Shown: one piece after another, positions 28,062-50,091 of the stretch
Layout of the letters: each line of letters starts with the position of its first letter
Numbering within the stretch: position 1 is the stretch's first letter
Source of the DNA: a bacterium
Lineage (GTDB): Bacteria > 4484-113 > JAFGCY01
DNA: 64,000 bases
Direction: 5' to 3'
NCBI GenBank assembly: GCA_020440645.1
Contig: JAGRNR010000009.1
Coordinates: 5,092 to 69,091, forward strand
The notes under the pieces: generated by a model
The model's input: only the letters and a program-made list of their open reading frames with translations
The model's database searches: none
Told to the model about the DNA's origin: nothing
Program-made: the position numbers and the translations under genes

Positions 28062-29755
28062 ATCCCGGCGGAGTGGATCGAATCCAGCATTGCCGAATAG
28101 CCCGCTGACATATGCATCAGCCAGTTCGGATAGATGCCGAGGAAGATGATCGCAGCGCCGAGTGGCAACAGCACGATGGCCTCACGCAGCGGCACACGGC
28201 CCTTCGCCGACTCCGGTGCATCCCCCGGCAGCGTGCGCTGCAGCAGGCTGATCATGTACACCGCGCTCGTCAGCACGCCGATCACCGCCAGGGCCGAGAG
28301 GATCTGCAAAAGCAGGCTGCCGTCGATGCTGCCAACCAGCACCGTCTGCCAGCCCGGCCCGTTCTCGAACGCGCCCATTAAGCTGTACAGCTCGCCCCAG
28401 AAGCCGGCCAGCGCCGGGAAGCCCATGCCGGCGAAGGCCGCCAGCGAAAGCATGCCCGCCAGGAGCGGGGCCGCGCTGCCCAGCCCAGCGATCTCATGCA
28501 CGTTGCGTGTGCCGTAGCGCCGCTCGATGCTGTCCGCCAGCAGGAACAGCGTGGTGATGATCACGCCGTGGCCCACCATGTGGTAGATCGCGCCGGTCGT
28601 TGCCAGCGGGTTCATTGCGCTGCAGCCGAGGATGATGAAGCCCATGTGGCTGATCGAGCTGTAGGCGATCATGCGCTTGATGTCGGTCTGTACCAGCGTG
28701 ACAGCCGCGCCCCAGACGATGCCGATCACCGCCAGCGTGGCAACCACCGGGCCGATCGCGTAACCCTGGTCCGGCAGCGCCCAGTACAGCACGCGCAGGA
28801 ATGCGTATGTCCCGCTCTTGAGCATCACCGCCGCGAGGATCACCGACATTTCCGCCGGGGCCTGGGTATGGGCCGGCGGCAGCCAGGTGTGCAGCGGGAA
28901 CAGCGGTGCCTTGACGGCGAAGGCCACGAGGAAGCCGAGGAAGATCCACATCCTCAGCCAGGGCACGACATCCGTATAGCCCTCGTTCAGCAGGAAGGTT
29001 GCCAGGTTCGGGATCTGGAAGCTGTAAACGCCGGCGCTGATCACCTTGCAGATGATGAGCGACATCAGCATGAACACCGAGCCGGCCATGGTGTACACGA
29101 AGAAGCGGATCGCGGCGCGCGCCGCCTTCTCGCGGTCCTTGCCCCAGCCGCCGATCAGCACGTACATCGGGATCAGCATCCATTCCCAGAACAGGTAGAG
29201 CAGCACGAAGTCCAGCGCCACGAAGGAGCCGATCAGGCCGACCTGCATGAACAGGGTCAGCGCGAGGAATTCCTTCACCCGCTCCGTGCGGTACCAGCCC
29301 CAGATGATGATCAGTGGCAACAGCGCACAGGTCATCAGCACCAGTGGCAATGACAGGCCGTCGATGCCGACGTCGTAGTGCACGCTGAAGCTGCGGCTCT
29401 CGCCGATCTTGATCGCCATCCATTCGATGTCCTGGCGGTACTGGAAGCCCGGGAACTCCGCCTGGAAGGGCGTGTACTGCCCGAGCGGCTTCAGGTCCTG
29501 CACGTTCTGCGAAGTGTCCGTGTATCCGGCGTAGGGCCGCCAGCTGGTTGCACTTTCGGGCAGCCCGGTCAGCAGCAGCACCGCAAACAGCAGGCTGAGC
29601 AGCGAGAACACCAGGGCCACGATCTTGATTGGCAGGATCTTCTTCTTCGGGATCAGGCAGACCAGCAGGCAGCCGACCAGCGGGGCCAGCATCATCTGGG
29701 TGATGGGGTTGCTGATCCACGAGATGAAGCCTATGAAACTCTGCGTCTGGTCCAA
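28055..29755 (-). CDS. Complex I antiporter-like subunit, NuoM/ND4-like (Mrp-type)
   Basis: 566 aa, about 14 TM. NuoM/NuoN/MrpD-type signatures (…PLHTWLPPAHTQAPAEMSVILAAVMLKSGTYAFLRV…; …WGAAVTLVQTDIKRMIAYSSISHMGFI…). Starts 1 nt after the nuoL-like stop. Convergent 7-nt overlap with plsY. Confidence 0.8.
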   Translation of the reverse strand: MDQTQSFIGFISWISNPITQMMLAPLVGCLLVCLIPKKKILPIKIVALVFSLLSLLFAVLLLTGLPESATSWRPYAGYTDTSQNVQDLKPLGQYTPFQAEFPGFQYRQDIEWMAIKIGESRSFSVHYDVGIDGLSLPLVLMTCALLPLIIIWGWYRTERVKEFLALTLFMQVGLIGSFVALDFVLLYLFWEWMLIPMYVLIGGWGKDREKAARAAIRFFVYTMAGSVFMLMSLIICKVISAGVYSFQIPNLATFLLNEGYTDVVPWLRMWIFLGFLVAFAVKAPLFPLHTWLPPAHTQAPAEMSVILAAVMLKSGTYAFLRVLYWALPDQGYAIGPVVATLAVIGIVWGAAVTLVQTDIKRMIAYSSISHMGFIILGCSAMNPLATTGAIYHMVGHGVIITTLFLLADSIERRYGTRNVHEIAGLGSAAPLLAGMLSLAAFAGMGFPALAGFWGELYSLMGAFENGPGWQTVLVGSIDGSLLLQILSALAVIGVLTSAVYMISLLQRTLPGDAPESAKGRVPLREAIVLLPLGAAIIFLGIYPNWLMHMSAGYSAMLDSIHSAGIY

Positions 29756-31953: not shown

Positions 31954-32439
31954 TCAATCCTTCATCAGGTTGGCATCATCAAGCATGATGCTCTTCTTCA
32001 TGCGGTAGAAGGCGATGATGATCGCCAGCCCGACCGCAGCCTCAGCCGCAGCAACGATGATCACGAATATCGAGAACACCTGGCCCATGTTCGTCATCAC
32101 GGATTCCTCCGCGGTGAACGAGGCCAGGGTGGATTTCGGTCCGTAGTAGAAGTTGAACGCGCTCATGTTGATGTTGACGGCGTTGAGCATCAGCTCCAGC
32201 GCCAGCAGCATCCCGATCGCATTGCGCCGCGCGATCACGCCGTACAGCCCGAGGCAGAAGATGAACGCGCTGAGCACGAAGTACTGGTGGTAGTCCACGT
32301 TGGTGAACCACACCATCGGCGTGTCGCCACTTGAGGCGAACCACTGGCGCGAGGCGAACTCGATCGCCTGGATGATCGGCGCCAGGCCCTCGCTCGCCAG
32401 CGAGCCACCCTCGGACTGTTGCAGCAGCAGCAGTAACAT
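31954..32439 (-). CDS. NuoK/ND4L-like subunit
   Basis: ORF 31954..32652. Homology to NuoK begins at the internal Met at 32316 (MVWFTNVDYHQYFVLSAFIFCLGLYGVIARRN… ~ E. coli [27 protein letters not shown]; …GQVFSIFVIIVAAAEAAVGLAII… ~ [23 protein letters not shown]). An in-frame Met at 32439 whose ATG overlaps the nuoJ-like TGA (ATGA) would add a 41-aa non-hydrophobic N-extension. The start is therefore either 32439 or 32316. Confidence 0.7.
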   Translation of the reverse strand: MLLLLLQQSEGGSLASEGLAPIIQAIEFASRQWFASSGDTPMVWFTNVDYHQYFVLSAFIFCLGLYGVIARRNAIGMLLALELMLNAVNINMSAFNFYYGPKSTLASFTAEESVMTNMGQVFSIFVIIVAAAEAAVGLAIIIAFYRMKKSIMLDDANLMKD

Positions 32440-33485
32440 CAGTCCTTCCTCACCAGGATGATCGCGCCGAGCATCGCCATGAGCAGGAGCACGCTGGCCA
32501 CTTCGAAGGGAAGTGTGTACGTTGCCATCAGCGACCAGCCGATGGCCTGGGTATTGCTTGTCAGTACTGCCGCACTGGGCGGGAACTCGGTGTTCTGCGG
32601 GAACTGCATGAACATCCCGACGAGCGCCATGAAGCCGAACAGCATCGTGCACAAAAGCGCGGCCCAGGGGCTCAGGTCAGTGTTCTGCCTGAGCTCGGTG
32701 CCGATGATGTTCTGGCTGACCATGATGCCGAACAGGAACAGCACCATGATGCCGCCGATGTAGATGATCACCTGCACCATCGCGAGGAACTCAGCGTTGA
32801 GCAGGATGAAGTAGCCGGCCACGCCGAACAGCGAAAGGATCAGCATCAGCGCGGAGTGGAACACGTTGCGCATCGTTACGCAACCGATGCCGCCGCCGAC
32901 CACGCCCGCCGTGAACAGCCAGAAGAAGAAGTTCAGCAGCCTGAGCGCGGGCACGCTGAGTGCCAGCATGCCCCAGAAGAAGGCGATGAAGCCAACGACT
33001 GTGAGGATTGCCAGCAGGCGCCGGTGGTCATGGAAGCGGTGCAGCGAAAGCTGCACGCAGGCGATCGTGCCGCCGACCAGCCCGAGGATCAGCATATTTG
33101 AAAGGTTGACAACCAGCGGCTGGAACAGCAGGGAGCTGATCACGAACACCGCCAGGCCAGCGCTGGCTGCCACCCGCAGCAGTCCGGCCTCCGCCGGCAG
33201 GCGGTTGAACAGCATCAGGTTCAGCAGGTAGAAGCCGGCGAGCATGCTGGCGCCCACCAGGATGCGTGCGTCCAGCTGCAAGGCCGCGGACCAGTCCAGT
33301 TTTCCACCCAGCGCTGCCAGCGGGGCGGCCAGCAGCGCCACAAGCACCGCGATCCCGGCCGTTGCCAGCAGCTGGCGGAAGATGCCGTCCAGCCGGTTGA
33401 CGAGCAGTCCGGCGGCCGCCAGCAACGCGGCCAGCAGGGCCACATTGCGCAGCAGCATAAGGGCGGCGGGCAGGCTGGTTTCCAT
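32439..33485 (-). CDS. NuoJ/ND6-like subunit with a ~165 aa N-terminal polytopic extension
   Basis: The C-terminal ~180 aa align with NuoJ (TMRNVFHSALMLILSLFGVAGYFILLNAEFLAMVQVIIYIGGIMVLFLF… ~ E. coli THTNPVHALLYLIISLLAISGVFFSLGAYFAGALEIIVYAGAIMVLFVF; C-terminal …YTLPFEVASVLLLMAMLGAIILV). Canonical NuoJ is about 170-200 aa; this protein is 348 aa with 4-5 extra N-terminal TM helices. Confidence 0.7.
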   Translation of the reverse strand: METSLPAALMLLRNVALLAALLAAAGLLVNRLDGIFRQLLATAGIAVLVALLAAPLAALGGKLDWSAALQLDARILVGASMLAGFYLLNLMLFNRLPAEAGLLRVAASAGLAVFVISSLLFQPLVVNLSNMLILGLVGGTIACVQLSLHRFHDHRRLLAILTVVGFIAFFWGMLALSVPALRLLNFFFWLFTAGVVGGGIGCVTMRNVFHSALMLILSLFGVAGYFILLNAEFLAMVQVIIYIGGIMVLFLFGIMVSQNIIGTELRQNTDLSPWAALLCTMLFGFMALVGMFMQFPQNTEFPPSAAVLTSNTQAIGWSLMATYTLPFEVASVLLLMAMLGAIILVRKD

Positions 33486-34480
33486 CAGGAACTCACCTCC
33501 CCGCGTGGCCGCCTGAGCGGCAGCACCAGCGCCTCGCGATTGGCAACCGGCATCGCCCAGCGCTCCTCGAACACGACGAGCGGGGTGCCGTCCGCGCGCT
33601 TCAGTTCGCCCAGCGCGGGATCATGGTCATAGCGTCCGAGGTCAACGAACAGCACCGTCGGCTGCCCGGGGGCCTGCGCGATTGCACCGCTGCCATCGGC
33701 GGCGATGATGCGCAGCGCTTCCTCCTCAGTCAGTGAGTCGACATTCAAGAGCGGCACGCCGCGGTAGGCCGCCGGCAGCTTCGGCCGGCTGCGCGGATAG
33801 TCCTCGGTGAAGGGCTCGCTCGAAGCCATCCGGGCGGTCTCGCGGAAGCCGGTCAGCACGGAGGTGCCGTAGCGGTGCACGCGGTTGCTGAAGAACCAGA
33901 ATTGGCTGAAGCCGGTTGCAAGGTAGCTCAGGTTGAGCACGAACACCAGGAACCAGAACAGCGCCCAGAGCATGAAGTAGCCGAGCTGGAACTTGAACAC
34001 GGGGAGGCTGCCGGTCTCGCGCCAGATGGCGAAGCCCTCGCCGCTGAGCAGAAGCGTCAGGTTCGGCGTGTCGGCAATGCCCTTCACGCTCATCTTCGGG
34101 TGGATGCGGTCCAGCGGGTCGAATTCCACGATGAAGAAGAACAGGATGATCACGAACAGCAGCAGACGCCAGAGCGTGAAGTCGCGCACCATCCAGCGGC
34201 TGTACTTCACAAGCGCGCCGGATGCCCACCAGAAGAAGCCGAGAATCGCCGGCAGGGCCAGCAGCAGGCCGCTAGCAGTGAACCACATCAGAGAGTACTG
34301 CTCGGAGGGCTGCTTGGAGGCATAGTCGTCAAACAGCGCGCCGTATTTCGTGTAGACGAACACCAACGTGAACCAGGACACGGCGATGAAGCCATAGAAC
34401 TTGAACCAGTCCATCGCGGTGTAGCCGAACCAGCGCTTCGGCAGCGGATGGTGGATTGTCAGGTCATGCCCGTCAGGCAT
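33485..34480 (-). CDS. Hypothetical polytopic membrane protein encoded inside the nuo-like operon (occupies the NuoI position)
   Basis: ORF 33485..34561. Start placed at MPDGHD… (ATG 34478-34480), which overlaps the TGA of the upstream gene (ATGCCTGA). Several TM helices (WFKFYGFIAVSWFTLVFVY; MWFTASGLLLALPAILGFFWWA; LWRLLLFVIILFFFIVEF; LGYFMLWALFWFLVFVLNLSYLA) plus a ~130 aa soluble C-terminal domain. No Cys-rich ferredoxin motifs (not NuoI). Its TGA overlaps the nuoJ-like ATG (33483-33487). Confidence 0.5.
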   Translation of the reverse strand: MPDGHDLTIHHPLPKRWFGYTAMDWFKFYGFIAVSWFTLVFVYTKYGALFDDYASKQPSEQYSLMWFTASGLLLALPAILGFFWWASGALVKYSRWMVRDFTLWRLLLFVIILFFFIVEFDPLDRIHPKMSVKGIADTPNLTLLLSGEGFAIWRETGSLPVFKFQLGYFMLWALFWFLVFVLNLSYLATGFSQFWFFSNRVHRYGTSVLTGFRETARMASSEPFTEDYPRSRPKLPAAYRGVPLLNVDSLTEEEALRIIAADGSGAIAQAPGQPTVLFVDLGRYDHDPALGELKRADGTPLVVFEERWAMPVANREALVLPLRRPRGEVSS

Positions 34481-34943
34481 GCTGCACCTCCTCCACCGTT
34501 TCCGGCTCGTTGGCAGCACTGCCGCCCGCTCCTGCTGCGGCGATGTTGCGCAGCTGGGCATGGTGCCCGGGCGCCGTCACCACGAACCAGTAGAGGAAGC
34601 CGGGCAGCAACAGCAGCACCGGCCGCAGTGTGAACTGCAGTTCGTACTGCAGCCACAGCGAATACAGGCAGCCGCAGGCCGCGAAGCTCCACAGCAGGGA
34701 AGCGATGCCGGGCCGCCGCCTGAACCAGGGGTTGATCCAGGCCGCATTGCGCGCCGGCGTCAGCGGCAGCACCGCCAGCAGCAGGCCGATTGCCAGCAGG
34801 GCCAGCGGGCCGAACCACTGCGTTGTCAGCACGGGTGCCACTCCAAGCACGATGCGCAGGTACAGGCCCCAGGCCCCGGCGGCCACGAGCAGCAGCTCTC
34901 CGAGGAGATGCAGCAGGTTCTGGCTGGTTGACAGCATCCTCAT
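34473..34943 (-). CDS. Hypothetical small membrane protein (4 TM) encoded inside the nuo-like operon
   Basis: ORF 34473..35042. Start placed at the internal Met MRMLSTSQNLLHLLGELLLVAAGAWGLYL… whose ATG (34941-34943) overlaps the TGA of the nuoH-like gene (34940-34942). About 156 aa. No family recognised. Confidence 0.5.
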   Translation of the reverse strand: MRMLSTSQNLLHLLGELLLVAAGAWGLYLRIVLGVAPVLTTQWFGPLALLAIGLLLAVLPLTPARNAAWINPWFRRRPGIASLLWSFAACGCLYSLWLQYELQFTLRPVLLLLPGFLYWFVVTAPGHHAQLRNIAAAGAGGSAANEPETVEEVQHA

Positions 34944-36715
34944 CCGGTCCAGCTCACCTCCCGGCGGGGCTGCGGATGTCGGCGCTGCACGAACAGGATG
35001 CGCCAGGCCATCAGGAGGATGAACAGGCCGAAGAACAGGCACAGCACGTTGTAGCCCCAGAAGAAGGCCTTCTCGGGGACTGTCATCACCGCCAGTGCTT
35101 CAGCTGTTGTCAGCGTCTGGTACTGGGTGACGCGCTGCAGGGCGGTCACGTCGACATCGGAGACGGCCAGCTGGTTCGCGCTGAACCAGGGATGGCGGTT
35201 GACGACGCCGAGCGCGGTGGCCGCCATCACGACCACGCTGGCCGGCAGCAGGAACTTCCAGGAGAAGAACATGATCTGGTCCACGCGGATGCGCGGCATC
35301 GTGGAGCGCGCCCATATGAAGAAGAAGCACACGGCGTAGGTCTTCAGCAGGAACCAGAACAGGCTCGTCAGCCACAATCCGTCGGGGCCGAGGAACATCG
35401 GGCCCTTCCAGCCGCCGAAGAAGCAGACGGTCATGATCGCGCTGACGATGAACACGTTGGAGTACTCGGCGACATAGAACAGCGCGAAGCGCATCCCGCT
35501 GTACTCCACCAGGTAGCCGCCCAAGAGCTCGTTCTGCGCTTCCGGCAGGTCAAAGGGCGGGCGGTTGGTCTCGGCAAGGCTGACAACGAGGTAGATGATG
35601 AAGGCCGGGAACAGCGGCAGGATGCCCCAGGTCATCGTCTGGCGCTGCACGATCTCCGTCAGGTTCAGCGAACCGGCAAAGATGGCAACGCACAGCAGGC
35701 TCATCAGCATCGGGATTTCGTAGGTCAGCAGCATCGCGGCCTCGCGCATCGCGCCGACCAGTGCATATTTGTTGTTGGAGGCGTAGCCGGACATGATCAC
35801 GGCCACGAGGAACATCGCAAAGTCGGCGATGATCAGGAGCAGGCCGACATTCAGGTCCTGGATCATGTAGTAGATGATCTGCCCGTCGACAGCCGCCACG
35901 CCGAACGGGATCACCACCCAGCTCAGGAGCGCCGGCAGGTAGACGAGGATCGGCGCGATCAGGTACAGCAGCTTGTCAGCGCTGAGCGGAACGGTGTCTT
36001 CCTTGAAGAAGATCTTGATCGTGTCGTAGAAGCCCTGGCGCCAGTAGTAGCGCAGCATGTAGCTCATGTAGAGCACGAAGGCGACCACGGTGCACAGCAC
36101 GGTGAGCTGCGGCAAAAACGGGATGTGCGCCTTCGGGATGAAGCCCAGCAGGAGAGCGACGAGCATGCCACCGCAGGACGCGAGGGATGGCCAGGCCAGC
36201 AGTGACAGCAGCGTTGCCAGGAAGCGCCAGACGGAGGTCTGCGCGGCCTGCATCCGGCCGAGCGCTGGCAGGATCATCAAGCGGTTGATCAGCCCCATCA
36301 TGCCCACGGCGAAGAACAGGATGATCCAGCCGCCGAACTGTTGCCAGCCGGCGGTGCCGCCGGTCCAGTAGTTGATGCCGTACAGCAGCGCGGGCAGGCC
36401 GATCAGCACGCCGATCTGCAGGAAGATCCGCCGGAAGCGCTGCGGGGTGACCTCGCCGTACTCCTGCGGGCCGCGGCGGCCCTGCATGCGCGCCATCAGG
36501 CGGCGTTCCCAGACCTGCAGGCCGATGGTGATCATCAGCTCCAGGAGGAAGATCAGCAGGAGCGCCGTCACCAACATGATGCCGTTGGCAACCTCCGGGC
36601 TGAAGCGCAGGCCGGGCAGCGGCTCGGTGTTGAGCCAGGCGCGCATCGCCTCCCAGACGGTGCGGGCCTCGTCCATGTCGTAGCGCTGCTGCAGGATTGC
36701 CAGCATCGGGAGCAT
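34940..36715 (-). CDS. NuoH/ND1-like subunit with a ~150 aa polytopic insertion and a ~80 aa C-terminal extension
   Basis: ORF 34940..36793. Start placed at MLPMLAILQQ… whose ATG overlaps the nuoD-like TGA at 36715. NuoH motifs are present (…VWERRLMARMQGRRGP…; …DTIKIFFKEDTVP…; …ASNNKYALVGAMREAAMLLTYEI…; …RPPFDLPEAQNELLGGYLVEYSGMRFALFYVAEY…; …RIRVDQIMFFSWKFLLP…). About 150 residues with about 4 TM lie between the RRGP and IKIFFKED motifs, where E. coli NuoH has about 15 residues. Confidence 0.75.
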   Translation of the reverse strand: MLPMLAILQQRYDMDEARTVWEAMRAWLNTEPLPGLRFSPEVANGIMLVTALLLIFLLELMITIGLQVWERRLMARMQGRRGPQEYGEVTPQRFRRIFLQIGVLIGLPALLYGINYWTGGTAGWQQFGGWIILFFAVGMMGLINRLMILPALGRMQAAQTSVWRFLATLLSLLAWPSLASCGGMLVALLLGFIPKAHIPFLPQLTVLCTVVAFVLYMSYMLRYYWRQGFYDTIKIFFKEDTVPLSADKLLYLIAPILVYLPALLSWVVIPFGVAAVDGQIIYYMIQDLNVGLLLIIADFAMFLVAVIMSGYASNNKYALVGAMREAAMLLTYEIPMLMSLLCVAIFAGSLNLTEIVQRQTMTWGILPLFPAFIIYLVVSLAETNRPPFDLPEAQNELLGGYLVEYSGMRFALFYVAEYSNVFIVSAIMTVCFFGGWKGPMFLGPDGLWLTSLFWFLLKTYAVCFFFIWARSTMPRIRVDQIMFFSWKFLLPASVVVMAATALGVVNRHPWFSANQLAVSDVDVTALQRVTQYQTLTTAEALAVMTVPEKAFFWGYNVLCLFFGLFILLMAWRILFVQRRHPQPRREVSWTG

Positions 36716-37869
36716 CACTTGTCGACCTCCCCGATCATGATGTCGAGGCTGCCGTAGATCACGAACAGGTCCGCCAGCAGGTAGCCGCGGCACAGCTCGT
36801 CCAGCAGGAACAGGTGGTACAGGCTCGGCGCACGCAGGTGCATGCGGCTCGGGCGGTTGCTGCCGTCGCTGACGAGTGTCAGGCCGAGCTCGCCGCGCGG
36901 GCTCTCGACCGCCGTGTAGACCTCGCCGCGTGAGACCTGCATCGCAGCGAAGTCTGGGCTGACATCCGCCGCCCGCAGCTCGCCGTTGTCAATGTAAGCC
37001 AGGCAGTGCTCAATGATGCGCAGGCTCTCGCGCATCTCGACGAAGCGCACGCGGTAGCGGTCCAGCACATCGCCATACTCGCCGGTCGGCACATGCAGCT
37101 CCAGCTCGCCGTACATCGCATAGGGCTGGTCGCGGCGCAGGTCATGCGCGATCCCGCTGCCGCGCAGCACGGGCCCGGTGGCACCGTGCTCGAAGGCGAA
37201 CTCGGGCTCGAGCGTGCCGATCAGCTCGCTGCGGTTGACCCAGATCGCGTTGTCAGAGAAGAAGTCCTCGTATTCATCCAGCCGGCCCTGGAACCACAGG
37301 CAGAATGCCCGCACATGGCCGCTGAAGTCCTCCGGCGGGGCAGTGCGCACGCCGCCGGGCACGATCCAGCCGTGGTGGTGGCGGTGCCCGCTGAGCATCT
37401 CCAGCAGGTCGAGCAGCATCTCGCGCTCGCGCAGCGAGATGAAGATCGGGGTGTAGGCGCCGGCCTCCAGGCCGAGGTTGCCAAACCAGAACAGGTGGTT
37501 GCCGATCCGGCTCAGCTCCAGCACAAGGGTGCGCAGCCACTGCGCACGGGCCGGAACCGTGATCCCCTCGATGCGCTCGATGGCGTCCGCCACCAGCCAG
37601 TCCGCATTGCTGCCGGCCAGCCACTCGCAGCGGGACAACAGCCCCGCCGCCTGGGCGTAGTTGCGCTGGGTCACCAGCTGCTCCACGCCGCGGTGCATGA
37701 AGCCGACCTCCGGCGTGATGCGCTCGATCAGCTCGCCGTCCGCCTGTACCCGCAGTTCCAGCGGGCTCGGCAGGCTCGGATGCTGCGGGCCGACGGAGTA
37801 GACCAGCTTCTCGGTCAGCAGCGGGTCGCGGCGGATCTCGACACGGCGATCAGAGCTGCGCGTCATCAA
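36715..37869 (-). CDS. NuoD (49 kDa)-like subunit lacking quinone-site His/Tyr and any NiFe-binding cysteines
   Basis: GPQHPSLPSPLELRV… (canonical GPQHP.AHGV), …GFMHRGVEQL…, …RIGNHLFWFGN…, and C-terminal …YGSLDIMIGEVDK (complex-I-type ending, no CxxC). 384 aa. Overlaps the nuoC stop by ~20 nt. Confidence 0.85.
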   Translation of the reverse strand: MMTRSSDRRVEIRRDPLLTEKLVYSVGPQHPSLPSPLELRVQADGELIERITPEVGFMHRGVEQLVTQRNYAQAAGLLSRCEWLAGSNADWLVADAIERIEGITVPARAQWLRTLVLELSRIGNHLFWFGNLGLEAGAYTPIFISLREREMLLDLLEMLSGHRHHHGWIVPGGVRTAPPEDFSGHVRAFCLWFQGRLDEYEDFFSDNAIWVNRSELIGTLEPEFAFEHGATGPVLRGSGIAHDLRRDQPYAMYGELELHVPTGEYGDVLDRYRVRFVEMRESLRIIEHCLAYIDNGELRAADVSPDFAAMQVSRGEVYTAVESPRGELGLTLVSDGSNRPSRMHLRAPSLYHLFLLDELCRGYLLADLFVIYGSLDIMIGEVDK

Positions 37870-38434
37870 GCACCTCCCGCATCGCCGCGTCCGCGCGCTG
37901 TTTCAGCACGTTTTCAGCGTAGTTCTCATGTGAGGCAGCCCTGAACTCCCGCCTGAGCGGGAAGCCCTGCAGCTGCGGGTCGAGGATCAGGCCAATGAGG
38001 TTAGGGTTGCCGGCGAAGGGGATGCCGAAGAACTCGAAGATCTCGCGCTCCATCAGCTCCGTGGCCCGCCAGATCAGGCTCAGGCTGGGGTGCACGCTCT
38101 GCCCGGCATAGGCCGGCGCGGCCTCGCTGTCCTCCCCGCCCGGATCCGTTGCCGGGGGATTGCCCTCCAGCAGGGTGAATTTCCATTTCAGTGTGAGGCT
38201 GACGTCATGCCGCCTGCCGTGCCTGAGCGTCAGGTAGAGGTGGAAGTCCGGCCCGCCGAGGTGGTTGGCGGTCATGTTCAGCGCACGGATGAAGCCGATG
38301 TTCTTCAGCTGGCGGCAGACCAGCGGCAGCTGGCCGCTGTCCGTCAGGATCGCCCAGCCGCGGGCGGGGTCCAGCAGCAGCACATCACCGCAGTCCTCAC
38401 GGATCTGACCGGCAAGCTCATCAGGGAGCACCAA
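37850..38434 (-). CDS. NuoC (30 kDa)-like subunit
   Basis: …ELMEREIFEFFGIPFAGNPNLIGLILDPQLQGFPLRREF… matches the NuoC signature (E.E..E.FGI.F.GHP.L.R.L…G.PLRKDF). 194 aa. First gene after an AT-rich intergenic region. Confidence 0.8.
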   Translation of the reverse strand: MVLPDELAGQIREDCGDVLLLDPARGWAILTDSGQLPLVCRQLKNIGFIRALNMTANHLGGPDFHLYLTLRHGRRHDVSLTLKWKFTLLEGNPPATDPGGEDSEAAPAYAGQSVHPSLSLIWRATELMEREIFEFFGIPFAGNPNLIGLILDPQLQGFPLRREFRAASHENYAENVLKQRADAAMREVLDDAQL

Positions 38435-38656
38435 GTCCTCCCCATCCTGGCTGGATTACGGCAATCGGCATACAGGTATAAACGATCAAAAGCCCCACAG
38501 CGTTACCTTATACATACAAAATGCAAAGGCTTTTGTAATTCTAGCCGATGGGGCAGCGCTGATCACCGCCTGCAGGCAATTGGTTGAAGGGCGTGTGGGT
38601 CTGCCAGCCCAATTGTTAACAGCGGGAAAATCAAAGTAAAGTCCCGATTCAATTAG
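38435..38656. promoter_or_regulatory. AT-rich divergent intergenic region (promoters for the nuoC-led operon and the sensor-kinase unit)
   Basis: Low-GC stretch (…gtataaacgatcaaaagcc…ttatacatacaaaatgcaaaggcttttgtaattctag…gggaaaatcaaagtaaagtcccgattcaattagttgattcattatcttgcgag…) between divergent gene starts. Confidence 0.45.
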
Positions 38657-39025
38657 TTGATTCATTATCTTGCGAGCCTGGATAATTTCTATAATTCAAA
38701 TCGTCAGACCCAGTCTGTACCGGTTGAATTCAAGATTCCAGGTCAAGGCATGCCACAGCAGCATGAATTAATTACTGCAATCCTCGGACTTGGCGTGTTG
38801 TTGCTGATGATCGTGCAACGCCGCCAGCTGCGGCTCATCCCTGACTACCGCTGGCTGTTCCTCTCCTACTGCCTGATCCTGCTGGCCTGGCTGCTGACCA
38901 TTGCGGAAGATTACTGGCTGCCGGTCTACATGAACCTGCTGGAGCATATCTGTTACCTGGCCAGCGCAGCGCTGGTCGCCTGGTGGACACAGAAGTTCCT
39001 CAGAAGGGAAGCGCCACAGCAATGA
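38657..39025 (+). CDS. Small membrane protein (2-3 TM), translationally coupled to the downstream sensor kinase
   Basis: 122 aa. TM segments (LITAILGLGVLLLMIV; WLFLSYCLILLAWLLTIA; ICYLASAALVAWW). Its TGA (39023-39025) overlaps the ATG (39022-39024) of the next gene (caATGAgc). Confidence 0.5.
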   Translation: MIHYLASLDNFYNSNRQTQSVPVEFKIPGQGMPQQHELITAILGLGVLLLMIVQRRQLRLIPDYRWLFLSYCLILLAWLLTIAEDYWLPVYMNLLEHICYLASAALVAWWTQKFLRREAPQQ

Positions 39026-40836
39026 GCATGCTGCTGACGGTGTTTGACCTGCTGAGCCTGCTGGCCGTGCTGTCTGCACTGTGGCTGGCGGCAGCCAGGC
39101 GGATTGCCGGCCTGCGGCGTGACTACCTGTGGTGCCTGATCATCCTGCTGGTGGTGCTGGGTCTCAACTTCCTCAGCAACCTGCTGGACAACAGCGGGCT
39201 GAGCCCCTGGCTGGAGCGCTTCGAGGACTACCCCGGACTGCTGCAGCCGGTGTTCTGGGGCATCCTCCTGATGAGCCTGGTGCAGGACCGCGCCCTGCGC
39301 CGCACCGAGCTCTCTGAACAGCGGCTGCGCGGCCTGCTGGACGCGATGCGTGACGGGGTTGCCACTATTGACCCGGGTGGCGTGTTCCGCTTTGCCAACC
39401 CGGCGGCCGCGGAAATCCTCGGGGTTGCCCACGGCAGCCTTAGCGGCCGCAGTCTGGACGAGTTCTGGCTGGCTACCGAATCGCATACTTGCCGGATGCT
39501 GCCACATTCCCCGGGCCAGGATTACAGCGCCTACGAATGCGGCATCCGCCATGGCAGCGGCGACAGCCTCGTGCTGCTGCTGCAGGTCTCGCCGATCCCG
39601 GGCCAGCCCCGCCAGCGCCTGCTGTTCATGCATGATGTGACCCCGCTGCGCCGGGCCGAGCACAGCCTGCAGCAGGCCCAGGCCCAGCTCGGACAGGCCC
39701 AGCGGCTGGAGGCGATCGGCACGCTGGCCAGCGGCATCGCCCATGACTTCAACAACATCCTGTTCGCGATTTCCGGCAACAGCCAGATCGCGCTGGATAC
39801 TGAGGGACTGACCGTCGATGCGCGGGAGAGCCTGCGCGAGATCGACACCGCCAGCCGCCGCGCCTCCGACCTGGTGGCGCAGATCCTCAACTTCAGCCGC
39901 AGCGAGAAGAGCCGGACACGGGACCTGTTGCCACTTCCGGTTGTCAAGGAAGTGCTGCGCCTGCTGCGCTCCACCGTGCCGCCGCAGGTCAGCATCCAGC
40001 TCAGCCATGACGAATCGACGTGCCGGATCCATGCCGACCCGACCGACCTGCACCAGCTGCTGATGAACCTCTGCACCAATGCGATCCAGGAGATGGCGGT
40101 GGAGGGCGGGACGCTGCGGGTCCGGTTGGAGTGCAGCAATCCACCGCCGACACTGGCCGAGCGGGGAATGCTGCAGCCTAAACCACACCTGATGCTCAAG
40201 GTCAGTGACACGGGGGGCGGTATTCCACCGGATGCGCTGCCGCACATCTTCGAGCCCTTCTTCACGACCAAGCCAAGCGGTGAGGGCACCGGTCTAGGGC
40301 TGTTCGTTGTCAGCGGGATCGTCAAGCGCCTGCAGGGACAGATCGAGATTGACAGCGAACCGGGCCATGGCAGCAGCTTCACGGTCTGGCTGCCGCTGTC
40401 CAGCGGGGCCGCTGATGCCGACGATGCCGGGCCGGGGCAGGCCACCGGCCGCGGCCGGGGCCGGCTGCTGGTGGTTGACGACGAGCCGGCGGTCAACCGG
40501 GTGCTGGCGCTGATGCTCGGCCAGCTCGGCTACAAGGTGACAACCTATAGCGACAGCTACCGCGCGCTCAGTGAGTTCCAGACCAACCCGGAGCAGTACG
40601 ACCTGCTGCTGTGCGACATCTCGATGCCGGGCCTGCGCGGCGATGAACTGGTGAAGCGGATACGCTCCGTTCGCCCAGGCCTGCCGGTGGTGCTGTGCTC
40701 CGGCAATCCGGATGTTCTGCCTCCGGGCAGTGCAACTGAACTGGGTGTGCATGCAGTGCTTAAGAAACCGGTTGACAAGCCACAGCTGGCGGATTGCATC
40801 GCCGAGGCACTTGGCAGTAACCGTGCACAGGCCTGA
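39022..40836 (+). CDS. Hybrid sensor histidine kinase (TM sensor, PAS, HisKA, HATPase_c, C-terminal receiver)
   Basis: ORF 38983..40836. Start placed at MSMLLTVFDLL… (ATGA coupling). Two or three TM helices, PAS-like region (LLDAMRDGVATIDPGGVFRFANPAAAEILG…), H-box (LEAIGTLASGIAHDFNNIL), N/G boxes (LMNLCTNAIQEM…; DTGGGIP…FEPFFTTKPSGEGTGLGL) and a receiver (RLLVVDDEPAVNRVLALMLGQLGYKV…DLLLCDISMPGLRG). Confidence 0.85.
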   Translation: MSMLLTVFDLLSLLAVLSALWLAAARRIAGLRRDYLWCLIILLVVLGLNFLSNLLDNSGLSPWLERFEDYPGLLQPVFWGILLMSLVQDRALRRTELSEQRLRGLLDAMRDGVATIDPGGVFRFANPAAAEILGVAHGSLSGRSLDEFWLATESHTCRMLPHSPGQDYSAYECGIRHGSGDSLVLLLQVSPIPGQPRQRLLFMHDVTPLRRAEHSLQQAQAQLGQAQRLEAIGTLASGIAHDFNNILFAISGNSQIALDTEGLTVDARESLREIDTASRRASDLVAQILNFSRSEKSRTRDLLPLPVVKEVLRLLRSTVPPQVSIQLSHDESTCRIHADPTDLHQLLMNLCTNAIQEMAVEGGTLRVRLECSNPPPTLAERGMLQPKPHLMLKVSDTGGGIPPDALPHIFEPFFTTKPSGEGTGLGLFVVSGIVKRLQGQIEIDSEPGHGSSFTVWLPLSSGAADADDAGPGQATGRGRGRLLVVDDEPAVNRVLALMLGQLGYKVTTYSDSYRALSEFQTNPEQYDLLLCDISMPGLRGDELVKRIRSVRPGLPVVLCSGNPDVLPPGSATELGVHAVLKKPVDKPQLADCIAEALGSNRAQA

Positions 40837-40884
40837 CGGGCGGGCGCGTCAGTGCTTTGTGATATACATGGGGAGGAGGCAGGC

Positions 40885-41250
40885 ATGGCGAAGAAGAAGT
40901 TCGAGGATGTGGACCCGCAGGTGCTGGCGGCCTACATGAAGATGATCGGGGGCGTTGAAGGGGTCGAGGCCAAGGGGGCCGCCGCGCCGTACACCTCCCT
41001 GAATGGCAATATGTACTCCAGTATCTCGAAGTTCAACGAGATCGGCCTGCGGCTGGCGAAGGATGAGCGCGAGGCCTTCCTCGAGAAGTACGACACCCGG
41101 CTCTACCACTCCATCCCCGGATATGTGCAGCGGGAGTATGTCACCGTGCCGCCTGCACTGTTTGGCAACACACGCACTCTGCGCAGCTGGTTCCGGAAGT
41201 CCTACGACTACGTCTCATCACTGCCGGCGAAGCCCACGAAGAAGAAGTAG
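40885..41250 (+). CDS. Small soluble protein, possibly TfoX N-terminal-domain-like
   Basis: ORF 40852..41250. Likely start MAKKKFEDV…. Pattern …MIGGVEGV…LNGNMYSSIS…IGLRL…EREAFLEKY…REYVTVPPALFGNTRTLRSWFRKSYDYVSSL is loosely reminiscent of TfoX_N. Low confidence in the family. Confidence 0.4.
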   Translation: MAKKKFEDVDPQVLAAYMKMIGGVEGVEAKGAAAPYTSLNGNMYSSISKFNEIGLRLAKDEREAFLEKYDTRLYHSIPGYVQREYVTVPPALFGNTRTLRSWFRKSYDYVSSLPAKPTKKK

Positions 41251-41741
41251 CGGGAAGGATTTCGGCGCTCGCTTGTCGGCAGTAGCGGGCGCGCTTGGCG
41301 ACGCCATGGAGTGATTGCCGCGAAGCAATGAGTGATGGTGTGTTGGTCTGCAGACCAACAGGGCCCTGTGGCTCTCAAGAGCCACACTCCGCCGCGTGCG
41401 CGCAGCCACGCGGAAAGCCCCTCTGCAATGAGCAATGCGGAGCAAGCAATGAGCCCGACGACACTCATTGCCAGACTCTGCGGCTCTGCGTTCACCAATA
41501 TCGCTCCACCCCAGCCGCATTGCCAACCAAGTGCAGGCTAGCCTCAGCCCAGTCAAACTGGAGAATTGTCAACACAGAGCCACCGAGCGCACAGAGTTTT
41601 CTGATCAGCTCCAGTCCCCGCATTTCCCTGACTTCGCTGCATCCCCTCCCAATCGCGGCTGGGCCGCGCCGGTTCTTCCGGTAACCCTGACCCTTGTTCT
41701 TCAGGTTGACTGATTCACTGGGAAATCCGAGACGAGCCAGT
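41251..41741. other. ~490 bp non-coding spacer rich in palindromes/hairpins and a repeated CAATGAG heptamer
   Basis: Perfect 20-bp palindrome TGTTGGTCTGCAGACCAACA (~41338-41357). Adjacent 8+2+8 palindrome GTGGCTCT-CA-AGAGCCAC. CAATGAG occurs 3 times (…gcgaagcaatgagtgatgg…, …tctgcaatgagcaatgcgg…, …gcaagcaatgagcccgacgacactcattgcc…), the last forming a hairpin with CTCATTG. No ORF of significant length with coding character. Confidence 0.5.
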
Positions 41742-42539
41742 CTATGAATACAGAAGATCCTCAAAATCCTCCGTCAGCTCTCCATGGAAAGTAGGGTAGT
41801 CAACCCTCCGGACATTGCGCCGCCATGGTCGCGGCCCCAGCTCGCTGCTTGTAAGCAGCTTGAGGTGAAGCGGATCGACATCTGTTGCCAGGCTGCATTC
41901 CGATCCGATGATCCCGTCTTTGTCCATGAAGTCCGTGTTTGGCCAGATATTGAAACTGCGACCGGATGACGTCCGGATCGAAGTCGGATTGAAGCCCATG
42001 GCAATCTCCATGGCATTGTAGCTTTCCCTGCGGATATCCAGCGGCAGGGCAAACCTTGACTGCTCAACATGCGCTGCATCCGACAATGCAGACTCTCCCT
42101 TTTGCCATTCGGGAAGGGGCATCGAGGCACTCAGGATGACAAAGGCCTTCTCTTGCCAGACGCCCGCATGATCCCTGACACAGCATGGGAACATCAGCCA
42201 CTTCATCCGCCGTTGAAACGCCGCGAATCCCACGCTGCCAATGTTCAGCAGCAGTTCCGCAAGCACTTTCGCCGGTTTCTCCATACCGGCATCCCAGGAC
42301 CTGGCCTTATCCAGGCAGCCTGCCGGAATTCTGAGCAGAAATCCCGATGCATGATCGAGATACCAGTCGGCATTGCATCTGGTGCAGATGTGCAGGATTC
42401 CGCGTTGCCAGCTTTCCCTGCGGATGATGAGCTTGTGCAGTTTGAAGTATGGGGTTTCCTCCCGGACACTTGCAGGAGGATCAGGATCCCAGGGGAGTGA
42501 TTCCCTGACCTGACAAGGGCAGCTGGCCTTGATACTCAT
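41742..42539 (-). CDS. Hypothetical Cys-rich protein (N-terminal CxC…CxxC zinc-ribbon-like motif), third gene of the nuoA-nuoB-like operon. Lower GC than surroundings.
   Basis: 265 aa. MSIKASCPCQV…ICTRCNADW…MFPCCVRDH…. GC visibly lower (about mid-50s %) than the flanking ~65% DNA. Starts 20 nt after the nuoB-like stop on the same strand. Confidence 0.5.
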   Translation of the reverse strand: MSIKASCPCQVRESLPWDPDPPASVREETPYFKLHKLIIRRESWQRGILHICTRCNADWYLDHASGFLLRIPAGCLDKARSWDAGMEKPAKVLAELLLNIGSVGFAAFQRRMKWLMFPCCVRDHAGVWQEKAFVILSASMPLPEWQKGESALSDAAHVEQSRFALPLDIRRESYNAMEIAMGFNPTSIRTSSGRSFNIWPNTDFMDKDGIIGSECSLATDVDPLHLKLLTSSELGPRPWRRNVRRVDYPTFHGELTEDFEDLLYS

Positions 42540-42558
42540 GGTTCATGGTAATGCGATC

Positions 42559-43011
42559 CTACCGCCACGCAAACCGCTCATCCAGCGCACCCGAGAGGAT
42601 GCGCTCCCGGAGCGCGATGATGCCGTCGATCAGCTGCTCGGGCCGCGGCGGGTCGCCCGGCACATAGATGTCCACTGGTACGATGCGGTCCACTCCCCCG
42701 TCCACCGCATAGCTGCCGTCGAAGGGCGCGCCGCTGATCGCCCCCGCGCCAAACGCCATCACGAAGGCCGGGTCGGCCATCGAGGCATGCAGCCGGCGGA
42801 TCACCGGGGCCATCTTGTTGTTGACGACGCCGGCCACGATCAAAAGGTCCACCTGGCGCGGGCTGGGGCGCATCACCTCAGAGCCGAAGCGCGCGATGTC
42901 ATAGCGCGGCGAGATCGCGCTGAACAGTTCCAGCGTGGCGTAGTCCAGTCCGAGCATCAGCGGCCACAGGGAATGGGCACTGGCCTCGCGGATGAGGTCC
43001 TTCAGACCCAT
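42559..43011 (-). CDS. NuoB (PSST/20 kDa)-like subunit in which all four cysteine ligands of Fe-S cluster N2 are replaced
   Basis: …HSLWPLMLGLDYATLELFSA… (canonical …WP..FGL[A/S]CC..EMM…); …VDLLIVAGVVNNKMAPVIRRL…; …VMAFGAGAISGAPFDGSY… (canonical MG.CA.[S/N]GG…); …IVPVDIYVPGDPPRPEQL… (canonical PGCPP). Overall NuoB fold signatures are intact (ARFG.E..R.SPRQ.D; KMAP; PVD.Y.PG.PPRPE). 150 aa. Overlaps nuoA by 10 nt. Confidence 0.8.
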   Translation of the reverse strand: MGLKDLIREASAHSLWPLMLGLDYATLELFSAISPRYDIARFGSEVMRPSPRQVDLLIVAGVVNNKMAPVIRRLHASMADPAFVMAFGAGAISGAPFDGSYAVDGGVDRIVPVDIYVPGDPPRPEQLIDGIIALRERILSGALDERFAWR

Positions 43012-43400
43012 TCCAGCGCTCCCTTGCGGTAGGCATAGGCCCAGCCGACGAGCAGGATGCCGAGGAACACGAACATCTCGCCCAGTGAGGCGGCCCCGAT
43101 CGGCGTGAAGGTGATGTCGTCATTGCCGAACACCAGCAGCCGGAAAGCGGTGGCCCAGGGGAAGATGAACATGATGTCCACGTCGAACATGAGGAACACG
43201 ATCGCGAGGATGTAGAAGCGGATGTTGAAGCGCACCAGCGCATCGCCGGTGGCCTGCGCGCCGGATTCATAGCTCAGGCGCTTGAGGAAGTTCGGCCGCC
43301 GCGGACGCCACAGGTTCAGGAAAGCGAATGCCAGCCCGATCAGCACCGCCCCGCCCAGCAGGAAGAGTGCCACCCAGTTGTACTGTCCAACGGTGTTCAT
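43002..43400 (-). CDS. NuoA/ND3-like subunit
   Basis: …LSYESGAQATGDALVRFNIRFYILAIVFLMFDVDIMFIFPWAT…YRKGALEWV matches NuoA (YECG…F.[IV]RFY…A..F..FDVE..F..PWA; C-terminal KGALEW). 132 aa, 3 TM. Confidence 0.8.
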   Translation of the reverse strand: MNTVGQYNWVALFLLGGAVLIGLAFAFLNLWRPRRPNFLKRLSYESGAQATGDALVRFNIRFYILAIVFLMFDVDIMFIFPWATAFRLLVFGNDDITFTPIGAASLGEMFVFLGILLVGWAYAYRKGALEWV

Positions 43401-45553: not shown

Positions 45554-45675
45554 CTTTATTCCTCACTGCGCCCGGATACTCTCCAGCAAGCTGGAGGGGC
45601 AGCACAGAATTCTAACTGAAAGAATCACCAAACTGAGCTTCGCGGCAAGCAGGTCCCAGCTACCCCTGGCACGGT

Positions 45676-47790: not shown

Positions 47791-47903
47791 CTTTATTCCT
47801 TGAACCTGCCTGGTTCCTTATGGCAGTGCAGGAGGCTGGGAAAATTCTACTCGATCAGTCTCAATCATTGACTTTCCCAGTAAAGCAATCCGCCAGCGAT
47901 CAT

Positions 47904-49997: not shown

Positions 49998-50091
49998 GCG
50001 CTTGTCCTCGCACTTTACCGGGTTCCGTCCGCACAGATTCTAACCCAGGACAAACCAGGACAAGCAGTTGCATCGCAGTCCGGCCTGCAGC

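Follow-up and report, generated by a model that had tools for sequence, protein, structure and literature searches.

The window analysed here, a stretch of 64,000 nucleotides from a bacterial contig, carries on its minus strand an operon of 11 genes in the order nuoA, nuoB, nuoC, nuoD, nuoH, X, nuoI, nuoJ, nuoK, nuoL, and nuoM, in which the nuo names denote homologues of the respective genes of respiratory complex I and X denotes a family-specific gene. All 11 open reading frames (ORFs) are intact and their start and stop codons overlap. The nuoM-like gene is the final gene of the operon, and the next gene downstream is plsY, located on the opposite strand. This order, with nuoM in last position, is conserved in the window and in the related loci L001/L090, L002, L082, L083, and L091. 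In the window, the operon is interrupted between the nuoB-like and the nuoC-like gene by an inserted block of about 4.1 kb (38435..42558), which is not part of the complex. It comprises a 91-aa ORF (38750-39025, plus strand), a hybrid kinase with PAS, HisKA, HATPase, and REC domains (39022-40836, plus strand), a TfoX_N-like ORF (40885-41250, plus strand), and an ORF without Pfam match (41742-42284/42539, minus strand); the 265-aa ORF of the block matched no Pfam or NCBIfam family up to an E value of 5. The block is absent from the relatives L001, L002, and L082, where nuoB directly adjoins nuoC. Scans of the window with Rfam and for tRNA genes gave no hits, and it contains no taxonomic marker genes.

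In the first-pass annotation of this DNA, the surrounding gene set was described as otherwise complete-looking, which holds only in part. The set contains homologues of A, B, C, D, H, J, K, L, and M in nuo order. It lacks nuoN, has a degenerate nuoI, and includes two novel inserted membrane proteins, and in the window the 4.1-kb block separates the nuoA- and nuoB-like genes from the genes nuoC to nuoM. Of the antiporter-type genes, only L- and M-type genes occur in the operon, whose last gene is nuoM in the window, L090, L091, and L088. Neither nuoEFG nor an equivalent NADH-input module was found within the operon or anywhere else in the 64-kb window; the missing input module alone is a weak sign, since 11-subunit complexes also lack one. 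Near the operons compared, no conserved neighbour gene indicates a substrate or a redox partner.

The nuoB-like gene (42559..43011, minus strand) extends from an ATG start codon to the stop codon included in these coordinates and overlaps by 10 nt with the end of the nuoA-like ORF. Its product is a NuoB/PSST homologue of 150 aa, as identified with PF01058 (E 1.8e-19) and by phmmer searches against the PDB, in which it is about 50% identical to Nqo6 of T. thermophilus (E 5.9e-38). It also scores above the NCBIfam cut-offs for NuoB (NF005012, 162.8 against 116; TIGR01957, 154 against 142.7), and the flanking signatures noted at first reading (ARFG, SPRQ.D, KMAP, and PVD.Y.PG.PPRPE) are all present. 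In the phmmer alignment, the Nqo6 segments fGLACCaiEm, mGACAssGG, and vPGCPPRPE are paired with lGLDYAtlEl, fGAGAisGA, and vPGDPPRPE, respectively. The ligands of cluster N2 in Nqo6, i.e., C45, C46, C111, and C140, correspond to Y24, A25, G90, and D120, and D23 directly precedes Y24. The original claim that all N2 cysteine ligands are substituted is borne out by this alignment to Nqo6, which places no Cys at any N2 position. The rendering of the first pair as CC to DY was one residue out of register, the actual change being A-C-C to D-Y-A, but the loss of the ligands is unaffected by this slip because the whole protein contains no Cys. Since Cys ligation of N2 is impossible, the NuoB-like protein cannot transfer electrons to quinone in the canonical way, as had likewise been proposed.

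All of the 72 canonical hits examined, and 146 of 148 aligned database representatives, have CCCC in the four ligand columns. Among the 48 closest homologue clusters, which were collected from NCBI, JGI, ENA, and Logan assemblies, 47 have no Cys in any of the four columns, the exception being P0044, in which the CC pair is kept. The substitution pattern across the relatives is D-Y/H-x ... G/N ... D, with D23, Y24, and D120 invariant or almost so within the family. An assembly error, which had been raised as a concern, can be dismissed: the identical sequence is found in NCBI (UNM09588.1, MCB1186400.1, and others) on 21 contigs, the longest of which spans 4.11 Mb, and the substitutions are common to the approximately 47 related clusters.

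The loss is not confined to NuoB. The nuoC-like gene (37850..38434, minus strand) encodes a protein of 193-194 aa with about 40% identity within the family, whose match to the 30-kDa family is confined to the C-terminal half (PF00329, E 1e-15). The nuoD-like gene (36715..37869, minus strand) encodes a 49-kDa/Nqo4 homologue of 383-384 aa, for which the roles of His38, Tyr87, and Asp139 (Thermus numbering) in the quinone site have been described (PMC4758237). In the window, His38 is replaced by Pro (GPQHPSLPSP), Tyr87 by Trp (motif RCEW), and Asp139 by Glu. The quinone-headgroup ligands are lost in all of the approximately 45 NuoD-like clusters (His38 to Pro, Ala, Val, or Thr; Tyr87 to Trp), and Trp87 and Glu139 are invariant within the lineage. 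The His adjoining N2 (RMH motif) is retained in all family members. No NiFe ligand Cys is present at the N-terminal (E86/W87) or C-terminal (IGEVDK) positions. The nuoI-like gene, designated Y (33485..34480, minus strand), encodes a Cys-free protein of 331 aa that consists of an N-terminal four-helix membrane domain and a domain with the NuoI/TYKY fold, whose fold and profile match NuoI with an hhalign probability of 96.4-96.8%. Both CxxCxxCxxxCP motifs, which provide the eight Cys ligands of clusters N6a and N6b, are gone, and none of the 11 operon products contains a Cys motif of the Fe-S type. The first-pass annotation was thus correct for NuoB and understated the extent of the loss, which is system-wide and includes His38 and Tyr87 of NuoD as well as the Cys residues of NuoI, the latter now a Cys-less domain on a membrane anchor. 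Taken over the operon, every recognisable redox motif has been lost: N2, both NuoI clusters, His38/Tyr87, and the NADH input.

These findings bear on the idea that the complex is still a redox enzyme, in which Asp, Tyr, and Asp, possibly with His, would bind a metal without Cys ligation, or which would receive its electrons straight from a partner protein. Mononuclear Fe or Mn is classically ligated by Asp, Tyr, and His, and the near-invariance of D23, Y24, and D120, the N2-adjacent His of all NuoD-like members, and the additional His residues of some of them (GHRHHHGW in the window) can be cited in its favour. The NuoI-like protein is devoid of cluster ligands, however, and there is therefore no wire to the former N2 site; the quinone ligands have been lost, the vicinity of the operon holds no conserved gene for a redox partner, and the additional His residues vary among family members. 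In the sister lineage L088, moreover, the ligand columns hold E, D, G, and S, and the His is replaced by Leu. We consider a redox function of this kind improbable. A new metal site composed of three His and two Asp residues at the interface of the NuoB- and NuoD-like subunits, as prompted by the GHRHHHGW motif, was rejected on account of the variability of the additional His and the divergence of L088.

The membrane subunits present a different picture. The nuoA-like gene (43002..43400, minus strand; 132 aa; PF00507, E 9.8e-28) encodes the most conserved subunit of the family (about 82% pairwise identity). The YECG motif of its TM1-2 loop is changed to YESG, the carboxylates being retained in the alignment, and a family-specific insertion of about 12 aa is located between TM2 and TM3. 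The nuoH-like gene (34940..36793, minus strand; PF00146, E 3.2e-97) has a longest ORF of 617 aa and a likely start at 36715, giving 591 aa. Two to four additional TM helices are inserted in its TM1-TM2 loop and a C-terminal extension provides one more TM helix; the TM5-6 loop (26 residues) is retained except for one Glu, which is replaced by Gln or Ser. X (34473..34943, minus strand) is a hydrophobic, family-specific protein of 156 aa with about four TM segments as judged by eye; it shows the lowest conservation of all subunits (about 30%) and is missing in L088. The nuoJ-like gene (32439..33485, minus strand) codes for 348 aa (PF00499, E 4.5e-38) including a lineage-specific N-terminal extension of about 120-180 aa, and the nuoK-like gene (31954..32439, minus strand) for 161 aa with a family-specific loop insertion and both membrane Glu residues (LELMLNA, AAAEAAVG). 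X, the N-terminal domain of Y, the NuoH insertion, and the NuoJ extension were assigned to no family in Pfam and NCBIfam searches up to an E value of 5.

The two antiporter-type subunits follow at the end of the operon. The nuoL-like gene (29756..31918, minus strand; 719-720 aa; PF00361) has NuoL as its best NCBIfam match, below the cut-off, and its product shows a weak C-terminal match over the region past the long helix. It retains the TM5 Glu, the TM7 Lys, the TM8 His, and the His, Lys, and Lys-Asp of TM11-12, one His of TM7 being changed to Ser. The nuoM-like gene (28055..29755, minus strand) encodes 566 aa scoring 450.6 bits against TIGR01972 (cut-off 263.8), and the alignment shows its TM5 Glu, TM7 Lys, TM8 Lys, and TM12 Glu to be all retained. 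Of the charged membrane residues inspected in NuoH, A, K, L, and M, all are therefore preserved apart from two conservative changes (NuoH Glu to Gln/Ser, NuoL His to Ser). In complex I, these residues serve as proton carriers.

The same architecture was found in at least six divergent genomes and in a sister lineage, L088, which was placed as such in a neighbour-joining tree. A contig pattern scan, one of whose two patterns also matches canonical NuoB, showed the family among species representatives in at least L002 among the matches listed. The mean pairwise identities within the family amount to 82% for A, 75% for H, 77% for K, 68% for J, 71% for B, and 68% for D, compared to 75, 74, 73, 60, 88, and 78%, respectively, in canonical operons matched on NuoH divergence. 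By this comparison, B and D have come under weaker constraint, and the channel subunits are held as tightly as before or more so.

The loss of all cofactor sites, the absence of nuoN, and the 4.1-kb insertion in the window might raise the suspicion of a paralogous nuo operon that has lost its function and is decaying, or of an error in assembly or sequencing. With 11 of 11 ORFs intact and overlapping at their start and stop codons, with an architecture that recurs across divergent genomes, with 42 invariant columns among 33 NuoB-like sequences of 57-97% identity, and with channel subunits constrained as much as in working complexes or more, this explanation is hardly credible; neither frameshifts or stops in the majority of family members nor a dN/dS close to 1 along the operon is observed, and the 21 contigs with the identical protein, including that of 4.11 Mb, stem from independent assemblies.

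In L088, both the NuoH insertion and X are absent, NuoD carries Trp38 and Ile87, and the NuoI domain keeps exactly one cluster's ligand set. The latter fits a stepwise loss of cofactors.

The product of the nuoB-like gene is the NuoB homologue in a rare, lineage-restricted derivative of respiratory complex I that is encoded by 11 genes. With the minimal 11-subunit complex I (NuoA-D and NuoH-N, termed Nqo in T. thermophilus), the operon shares homologues of A, B, C, D, H, I (as a domain), J, K, L, and M in canonical order, best NCBIfam and PDB matches that are all Nuo, and the conserved Lys and Glu residues of the membrane proton path with the two exceptions named. It differs from this complex by the lack of N2, N6a/N6b, and the His38/Tyr87 ligands, by the lack of NuoN and the fusion of NuoI to a 4-TM anchor, and by the extra subunit X, the TM insertions of NuoH, and the loop insertions shared by NuoA and NuoK.

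The first-pass annotation had assigned the locus to the energy-converting or Ech-hydrogenase-related (Ehr) complexes, and this assignment could not be upheld. Ehr complexes, as known from Geobacter, Desulfotomaculum, Margulisbacteria, and Nitrospira, likewise belong to the complex I/hydrogenase superfamily, have no assigned function, and possess a large subunit without NiFe ligand Cys residues. These residues are likewise missing from the corresponding subunit in every complex I. Ehr was described as an Ech-hydrogenase-related cluster of Ech-like composition, whose hallmark is the missing NiFe Cys of the large subunit and not the cluster of the small subunit (PMC7894505, PMC3569383, PMC6349859, PMC10284858). 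Ehr groups with the group-4 hydrogenases, whereas the family described here is Nuo-derived, has also lost the small-subunit and NuoI clusters, and has nuoA, nuoJ, nuoK, and a full-length NuoL-type gene, all of them outside the described Ech-like composition. For every subunit, the Nuo families give better matches than the hydrogenases, with NuoB, NuoD, and NuoM above the NCBIfam trusted cut-offs, and the Ehr label is therefore unsupported. Hydrogenase large-subunit models reach only E 2.6e-4. In the PDB searches, the NuoB-like protein scores 133 bits to Nqo6 versus 86 to MbhJ, the NuoD-like protein E 1e-84 to the 49-kDa subunit versus 4e-44 to MbhL, and complex I is favoured over Mbh, Hyc, and Mbs by 50-130 bits. 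On these scores and the published descriptions of Ehr, which together set the family apart, membership in Ehr is very unlikely.

The membrane-bound sulfane reductase (MBS, Mbx) and the membrane-bound hydrogenase (MBH) of Pyrococcus are also complex-I-like enzymes with a modified or absent NiFe site, and MBS has two antiporter-type subunits. In the MBH and MBS structures all three [4Fe-4S] clusters are kept, and both are redox enzymes. The operon products score far lower to them than to complex I (MbsJ, E 6.6e-20; MbsL, E 1.2e-61; MbhJ, E 2.8e-23).

The loss of the redox motifs together with the retention of the charged membrane residues leads us to infer that the complex is not an oxidoreductase. 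Our preferred reading, which we hold about as likely as not, is that it is a redox-dead derivative of complex I in which an ion gradient drives translocation independently of redox chemistry, as in a cation/proton antiporter. Ions would be translocated without electron transfer, either in the manner of Mrp or in that of the deactive mammalian complex I, in which the ion-transfer domain is uncoupled. The cofactor-free B/C/D/I cap would serve as a structural and gating lid over the NuoH/A/J/K channel, with Asp, Tyr, Gly, and Asp residues presumably occupying the former N2 pocket.

Mrp, which is itself redox-independent and is the functional model proposed for the family, resembles it in having two antiporter-type subunits (MrpA and MrpD, related to NuoL and NuoM) and a NuoK-like subunit. 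Unlike the complex described here, Mrp lacks the NuoH/A/J channel module and the cytoplasmic B/C/D/I cap, and it contains MrpB, E, F, and G, which have no homologues in the operon. MrpE, F, and G have a proposed role in the Na+ path, and their absence, as judged from the operon content, speaks against an antiporter. Mammalian complex I in its deactive form was shown to be a Na+/H+ antiporter (PMC3464577), and there, too, an ion-transfer domain works apart from the redox domain; the deactive form is a reversible state with the full set of cofactors, whereas the disconnection in the family is genetic and permanent. The putative antiporter activity is deduced from retained residues and analogy, and a pure antiporter has no obvious need for a four-subunit cytoplasmic cap.

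The persistence of this cap raises the possibility, which we regard as tentative, that it was kept because the former quinone/N2 pocket of the cofactor-free complex is the binding site of a new substrate or ion. The NuoB- and NuoD-like subunits are still well conserved, and their invariant new residues (D23, Y24, and D120; Trp87 and Glu139) could mark a specific ligand site; both observations weigh against a simple antiporter. So does the position of the large NuoH insertion, which sits exactly in the loop lining the quinone cavity and hints at a cavity that was remodelled and not merely plugged. If the pocket indeed binds a ligand, the family would represent an unrecognised class of non-redox energy converters of the complex I type, for instance a transporter powered by the pmf or a proton machine gated by a ligand, and a natural experiment on the coupling of the Q cavity to distant proton pumps.

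Along these lines, the complex might be a conformational machine, driven by the pmf or generating it, with a new non-redox task at the former quinone cavity. For instance, a membrane-soluble or ionic substrate could be moved via the remodelled NuoH/NuoD/NuoB pocket with the antiporter-like subunits as the motor, comparable to complex I in reverse. All four cavity-gating loops (NuoD beta1-beta2, NuoB, NuoA TM1-2, and NuoH TM5-6) are present, NuoA is unusually conserved (82%), two to four TM helices are inserted in the TM1-2 loop of NuoH, which lines the cavity entrance, the new pocket residues are invariant, and two family-specific membrane modules, X and the N-terminal domain of Y, match no known function. 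Against this stand the lack of a candidate substrate and of a conserved neighbour gene suggesting one, the fact that the NuoB- and NuoD-like subunits evolve faster than their canonical counterparts, which is more in keeping with a cap than with a new catalytic site, and L088, which does without the NuoH insertion and X and has other pocket residues. Such a machine is conceivable, though we hold it doubtful.

A central open question for complex I is how quinone chemistry drives proton pumps up to 200 Å away. In the family described here, for which the searchable literature contained nothing relevant, neither on a cofactor-less or N2-less complex I nor on the family itself, the coupling loops, the E-channel, and two pump modules are under purifying selection in the absence of clusters and quinone ligands. 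The complex I scaffold can thus be seen to have a selectable function without redox chemistry, in a system tractable for structural studies and transport assays. The public records label the B and D subunits "NADH-quinone oxidoreductase subunit B/D", both score above the NuoB and NuoD cut-offs of NCBIfam, and metabolic reconstructions would therefore wrongly credit these uncultured bacteria with respiratory complex I.

The product of nuoB* (42559-43011, minus strand; 150 aa), whose ATG start overlaps the stop codon of the upstream nuoA-like ORF by 10 nt, is by sequence a clear NuoB/PSST homologue: it matches PF01058 (E = 1.8e-19) and the NCBIfam models NF005012 (162.8 bits; cut-off 116) and TIGR01957 (154 bits; cut-off 142.7), and Nqo6 of T. 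thermophilus aligns with it at an E-value of 5.9e-38 (phmmer). In the residue-by-residue alignment, the Nqo6 motifs GLACCAIEM, GACASSGG, and PGCPPRPE correspond to GLDYATLEL, GAGAISGA, and PGDPPRPE in NuoB*, and the cluster N2 ligands C45, C46, C111, and C140 to Y24, A25, G90, and D120. CCCC occupies these four columns in 72/72 canonical NuoB matches examined and in 146 of the 148 aligned database representatives. The replacement of all four N2 ligands, proposed in the first-pass annotation, is thus borne out, there being no Cys at any ligand column or elsewhere in NuoB*; only the register of its "CC to DY" was one residue off, which is harmless because the protein is Cys-free.

The substitutions are neither an error nor a one-off, since the same NuoB* is present on 21 contigs (the largest of 4.11 Mb) and 47 of 48 related clusters are alike. 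Identical NCBI entries (UNM09588.1, MCB1186400.1, and others) are annotated as "NuoB [bacterium]". The 48 clusters (61-97% identity) were retrieved from 5.8 billion proteins, and below them identity falls abruptly, to at most 58%, where canonical CCCC proteins begin. Cys is absent from all four ligand columns in 47 of them, which share the motifs LGLD(Y/H)xT.E, G.(G/N)A(I/V)SG, and PGDPP.P; across 33 aligned members, 42 columns including D23 and D120 are invariant and Y24 and G90 nearly so. The sole cluster keeping the CC pair, P0044 (154 aa, 503-nt contig), retains FGLACCAIEM, but its motifs 2 and 3 carry the G and D typical of the family. It represents either an intermediate stage in evolution or a short contig of chimeric origin.

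Judged from the sequences, the loss of redox sites extends beyond NuoB to the whole system. NuoD* (36715-37869, minus strand) belongs with the 49-kDa subunits of complex I type (E ~1e-84 against mitochondrial 49-kDa chains, 4e-44 against MbhL). In it, canonical GPQHPxxHG reads GPQHPSLPSP and R(L/M)DY reads RCEW, so that both quinone-headgroup ligands, His38 and Tyr87, are gone, and Asp139 is replaced by Glu (Thermus numbering; roles of the three residues from PMC4758237). These changes are common to all ~45 NuoD* clusters, which are separated from canonical sequences by a gap in identity (at least 56% inside the family, at most 46% outside). At residues ~160-170, next to the former N2 site, a His-rich LSGHRHHHGW stands in place of canonical SGxRMHxxY; across the family (GHRWHHGW, GQRYHGQY, and others) only its R-x-H core is conserved. 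The position expected for nuoI is occupied by Y (nuoI*, 33485-34480, minus strand; 331 aa), which has no match in Pfam or NCBIfam. A profile of 41 Y homologues matches a NuoI profile with 96.8% probability (E = 2.4e-10) over the N-terminal helix of NuoI, its PxTxxYP...RG motif, and its ferredoxin-like domain, and four transmembrane helices precede this region. As Y contains no cysteine, both CxxCxxCxxxCP motifs are lost.

The minus-strand gene order is nuoA, nuoB*, a 4.1-kb inserted block, nuoC, nuoD*, nuoH, X, Y, nuoJ, nuoK, nuoL, and nuoM. No operon product carries an Fe-S-type Cys motif, nuoE, nuoF, and nuoG are absent from the 64-kb window, and nuoN was not found after nuoM in this operon or in three others that were followed to the last gene. 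With the Cys ligands of N2, N6a, and N6b as well as His38 and Tyr87 missing, canonical electron transfer to quinone is excluded, as the first-pass annotation had concluded from NuoB.

In the membrane subunits, the predicted ion-path residues that were checked have been kept under selection, with two exceptions: one Glu in the otherwise kept ETNRxPFDLPEA..E loop of NuoH is replaced by Gln or Ser, and one His in TM7 of NuoL by Ser. NuoM keeps the TM5 Glu, TM7 Lys, TM8 Lys, and TM12 Glu, NuoL its Glu, Lys, His, Lys, and Lys-Asp set, NuoK both glutamates, and NuoA its carboxylates. New features are 2-4 transmembrane helices inserted in the TM1-2 loop of NuoH, an extra helix at its C-terminus, loop insertions in NuoA and NuoK, and X (34473-34943, minus strand), a poorly conserved hydrophobic protein with, as judged by eye, ~4 transmembrane segments. 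The related locus L083 has a shorter NuoH (504 aa) and, between nuoD and nuoH, a separate 181-aa ORF without family match (13681-14226), a candidate counterpart of the N-terminal extension or loop insertion seen in nuoH of the window and of L001. NuoJ of the window (348 aa) carries a hydrophobic-looking N-terminal extension of ~120-180 aa (32950-33485) that is absent from L001, L002, and L083 (227-229 aa). Mean pairwise identities within the family, compared with those of canonical operon pairs of similar NuoH divergence (n = 81), were 82% versus 75% for A, 75% versus 74% for H, 77% versus 73% for K, 68% versus 60% for J, 71% versus 88% for B, and 68% versus 78% for D. By this measure, constraint on the channel-forming subunits equals or exceeds that in working enzymes, and that on NuoB* and NuoD* is relaxed yet far from neutral.

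We consider the complex a cofactor-free complex I derivative and not an oxidoreductase (probability about 0.9). It would run without redox chemistry, most probably as a cation/proton exchanger or some other translocator powered by a gradient, with the B*/C/D*/I* cap in a structural or gating role and the cluster pocket filled by Asp, Tyr, and Asp. In Mrp, homologous subunits perform gradient-driven exchange, and the family plausibly works alike, yet it is no Mrp member; an antiporter-type mechanism, suggested by this analogy, has slightly less than an even chance. A precedent is mammalian complex I in its deactive state, which acts as a Na+/H+ antiporter (PMC3464577). In the main rival reading, which appears rather unlikely, a new substrate or ion would be bound in the remodelled cavity, and the pump modules would serve as motor.

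The order A-B*-C-D*-H-X-Y-J-K-L-M recurs in relatives (L001/L090, L002, L082, L083, and L091). Homologues of Y form 43 clusters only, every one "hypothetical", and their contigs match those carrying NuoB* in every case in which lengths were comparable; the GTDB species representatives include at least one family member, a Zodletone MAG (L002). When 1.8 billion representatives were searched exhaustively by HMM, one more Cys-less NuoB emerged, P0299, whose ligand columns read E, D, G, and S. Its operon (L088, A-B-C-D-H-Y'-J-K-L-M) contains neither X nor NuoN, its NuoD has Trp38 and Ile87, and its anchored NuoI-like protein Y' (13562-14626) retains four Cys and no more, from CP in motif 1 (AAAACP) and CxxCxxC in motif 2 (CYFCGLC). 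Going by the way in which two-cluster ferredoxins usually bind their clusters, these are presumably the ligand set of a single [4Fe-4S] cluster. The different residues in this sister lineage, the lack of a wire through NuoI*, and the poor conservation of the extra histidines make a new non-Cys metal centre in the family very improbable. When A, B, D, H, J, and K were concatenated and analysed by neighbour-joining, with a limited canonical sample and without hydrogenase outgroup, the family and L088 grouped together, apart from 44 canonical operons, in 100/100 bootstraps; they also share indels in NuoA, NuoK, and NuoH. The pattern suggests that cofactors were lost stepwise within a single clade of Nuo origin, as far as neighbour-joining with this sample indicates, and L088 looks like an intermediate. 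In the sister lineage alone, a DtxR-type iron-dependent repressor (FeoA domain) and an MgtC-family protein are encoded upstream of the operon, at a distance of a few genes (L088, 6228-8221; L089, 2848-4841); a link between iron limitation and the Fe-S-free complex is conceivable for that lineage.

The family is a genuine, conserved variant of the complex I superfamily. Its closest relative by homology is the 11-subunit Nuo complex I, of which four defining features are missing: N2, the NuoI clusters, the quinone ligands, and NuoN. The initially suggested Ehr label was rejected, since Ehr, as the cited papers use the term, denotes Ech-like clusters grouping with group-4 hydrogenases, with missing large-subunit NiFe cysteines as hallmark (PMC7894505, PMC3569383, PMC6349859, PMC10284858). 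The variant is apparently undescribed: no account of such a cofactor-free family was found among 8 million searchable papers, and a survey of complex I variants published in 2025 lists subunit presence with no mention of cysteine or Fe-S ligands, neither term occurring once. Public records name the subunits NuoB, NuoD, etc., the scores exceeding the NCBIfam cut-offs for those names.

The block separating nuoB* from nuoC (~4.1 kb, 38435-42558) contains a PAS/HisKA/HATPase/REC hybrid kinase gene (39022-40836, plus strand), a TfoX_N-like ORF (40885-41250, plus strand), an ORF without family match (41742-42284/42539, minus strand), and a 91-aa ORF; a sigma-70-like match lies upstream of nuoC (38691-38664, minus strand). 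In L001, L002, and L082 nuoB* and nuoC directly adjoin; in L083 the junction is occupied by three other small ORFs, and in L091 an 87-aa ORF sits between nuoA and nuoB*. Regions 43454-56775, 1628-4021, and 57978-60308 of the window encode, between them, four consecutive large secreted PKD/PPC-domain proteins directly upstream of nuoA (43454-52914, minus strand), a 1232-aa subtilase, and two ankyrin-repeat proteins. In L083, too, nuoA is preceded by a PKD protein.
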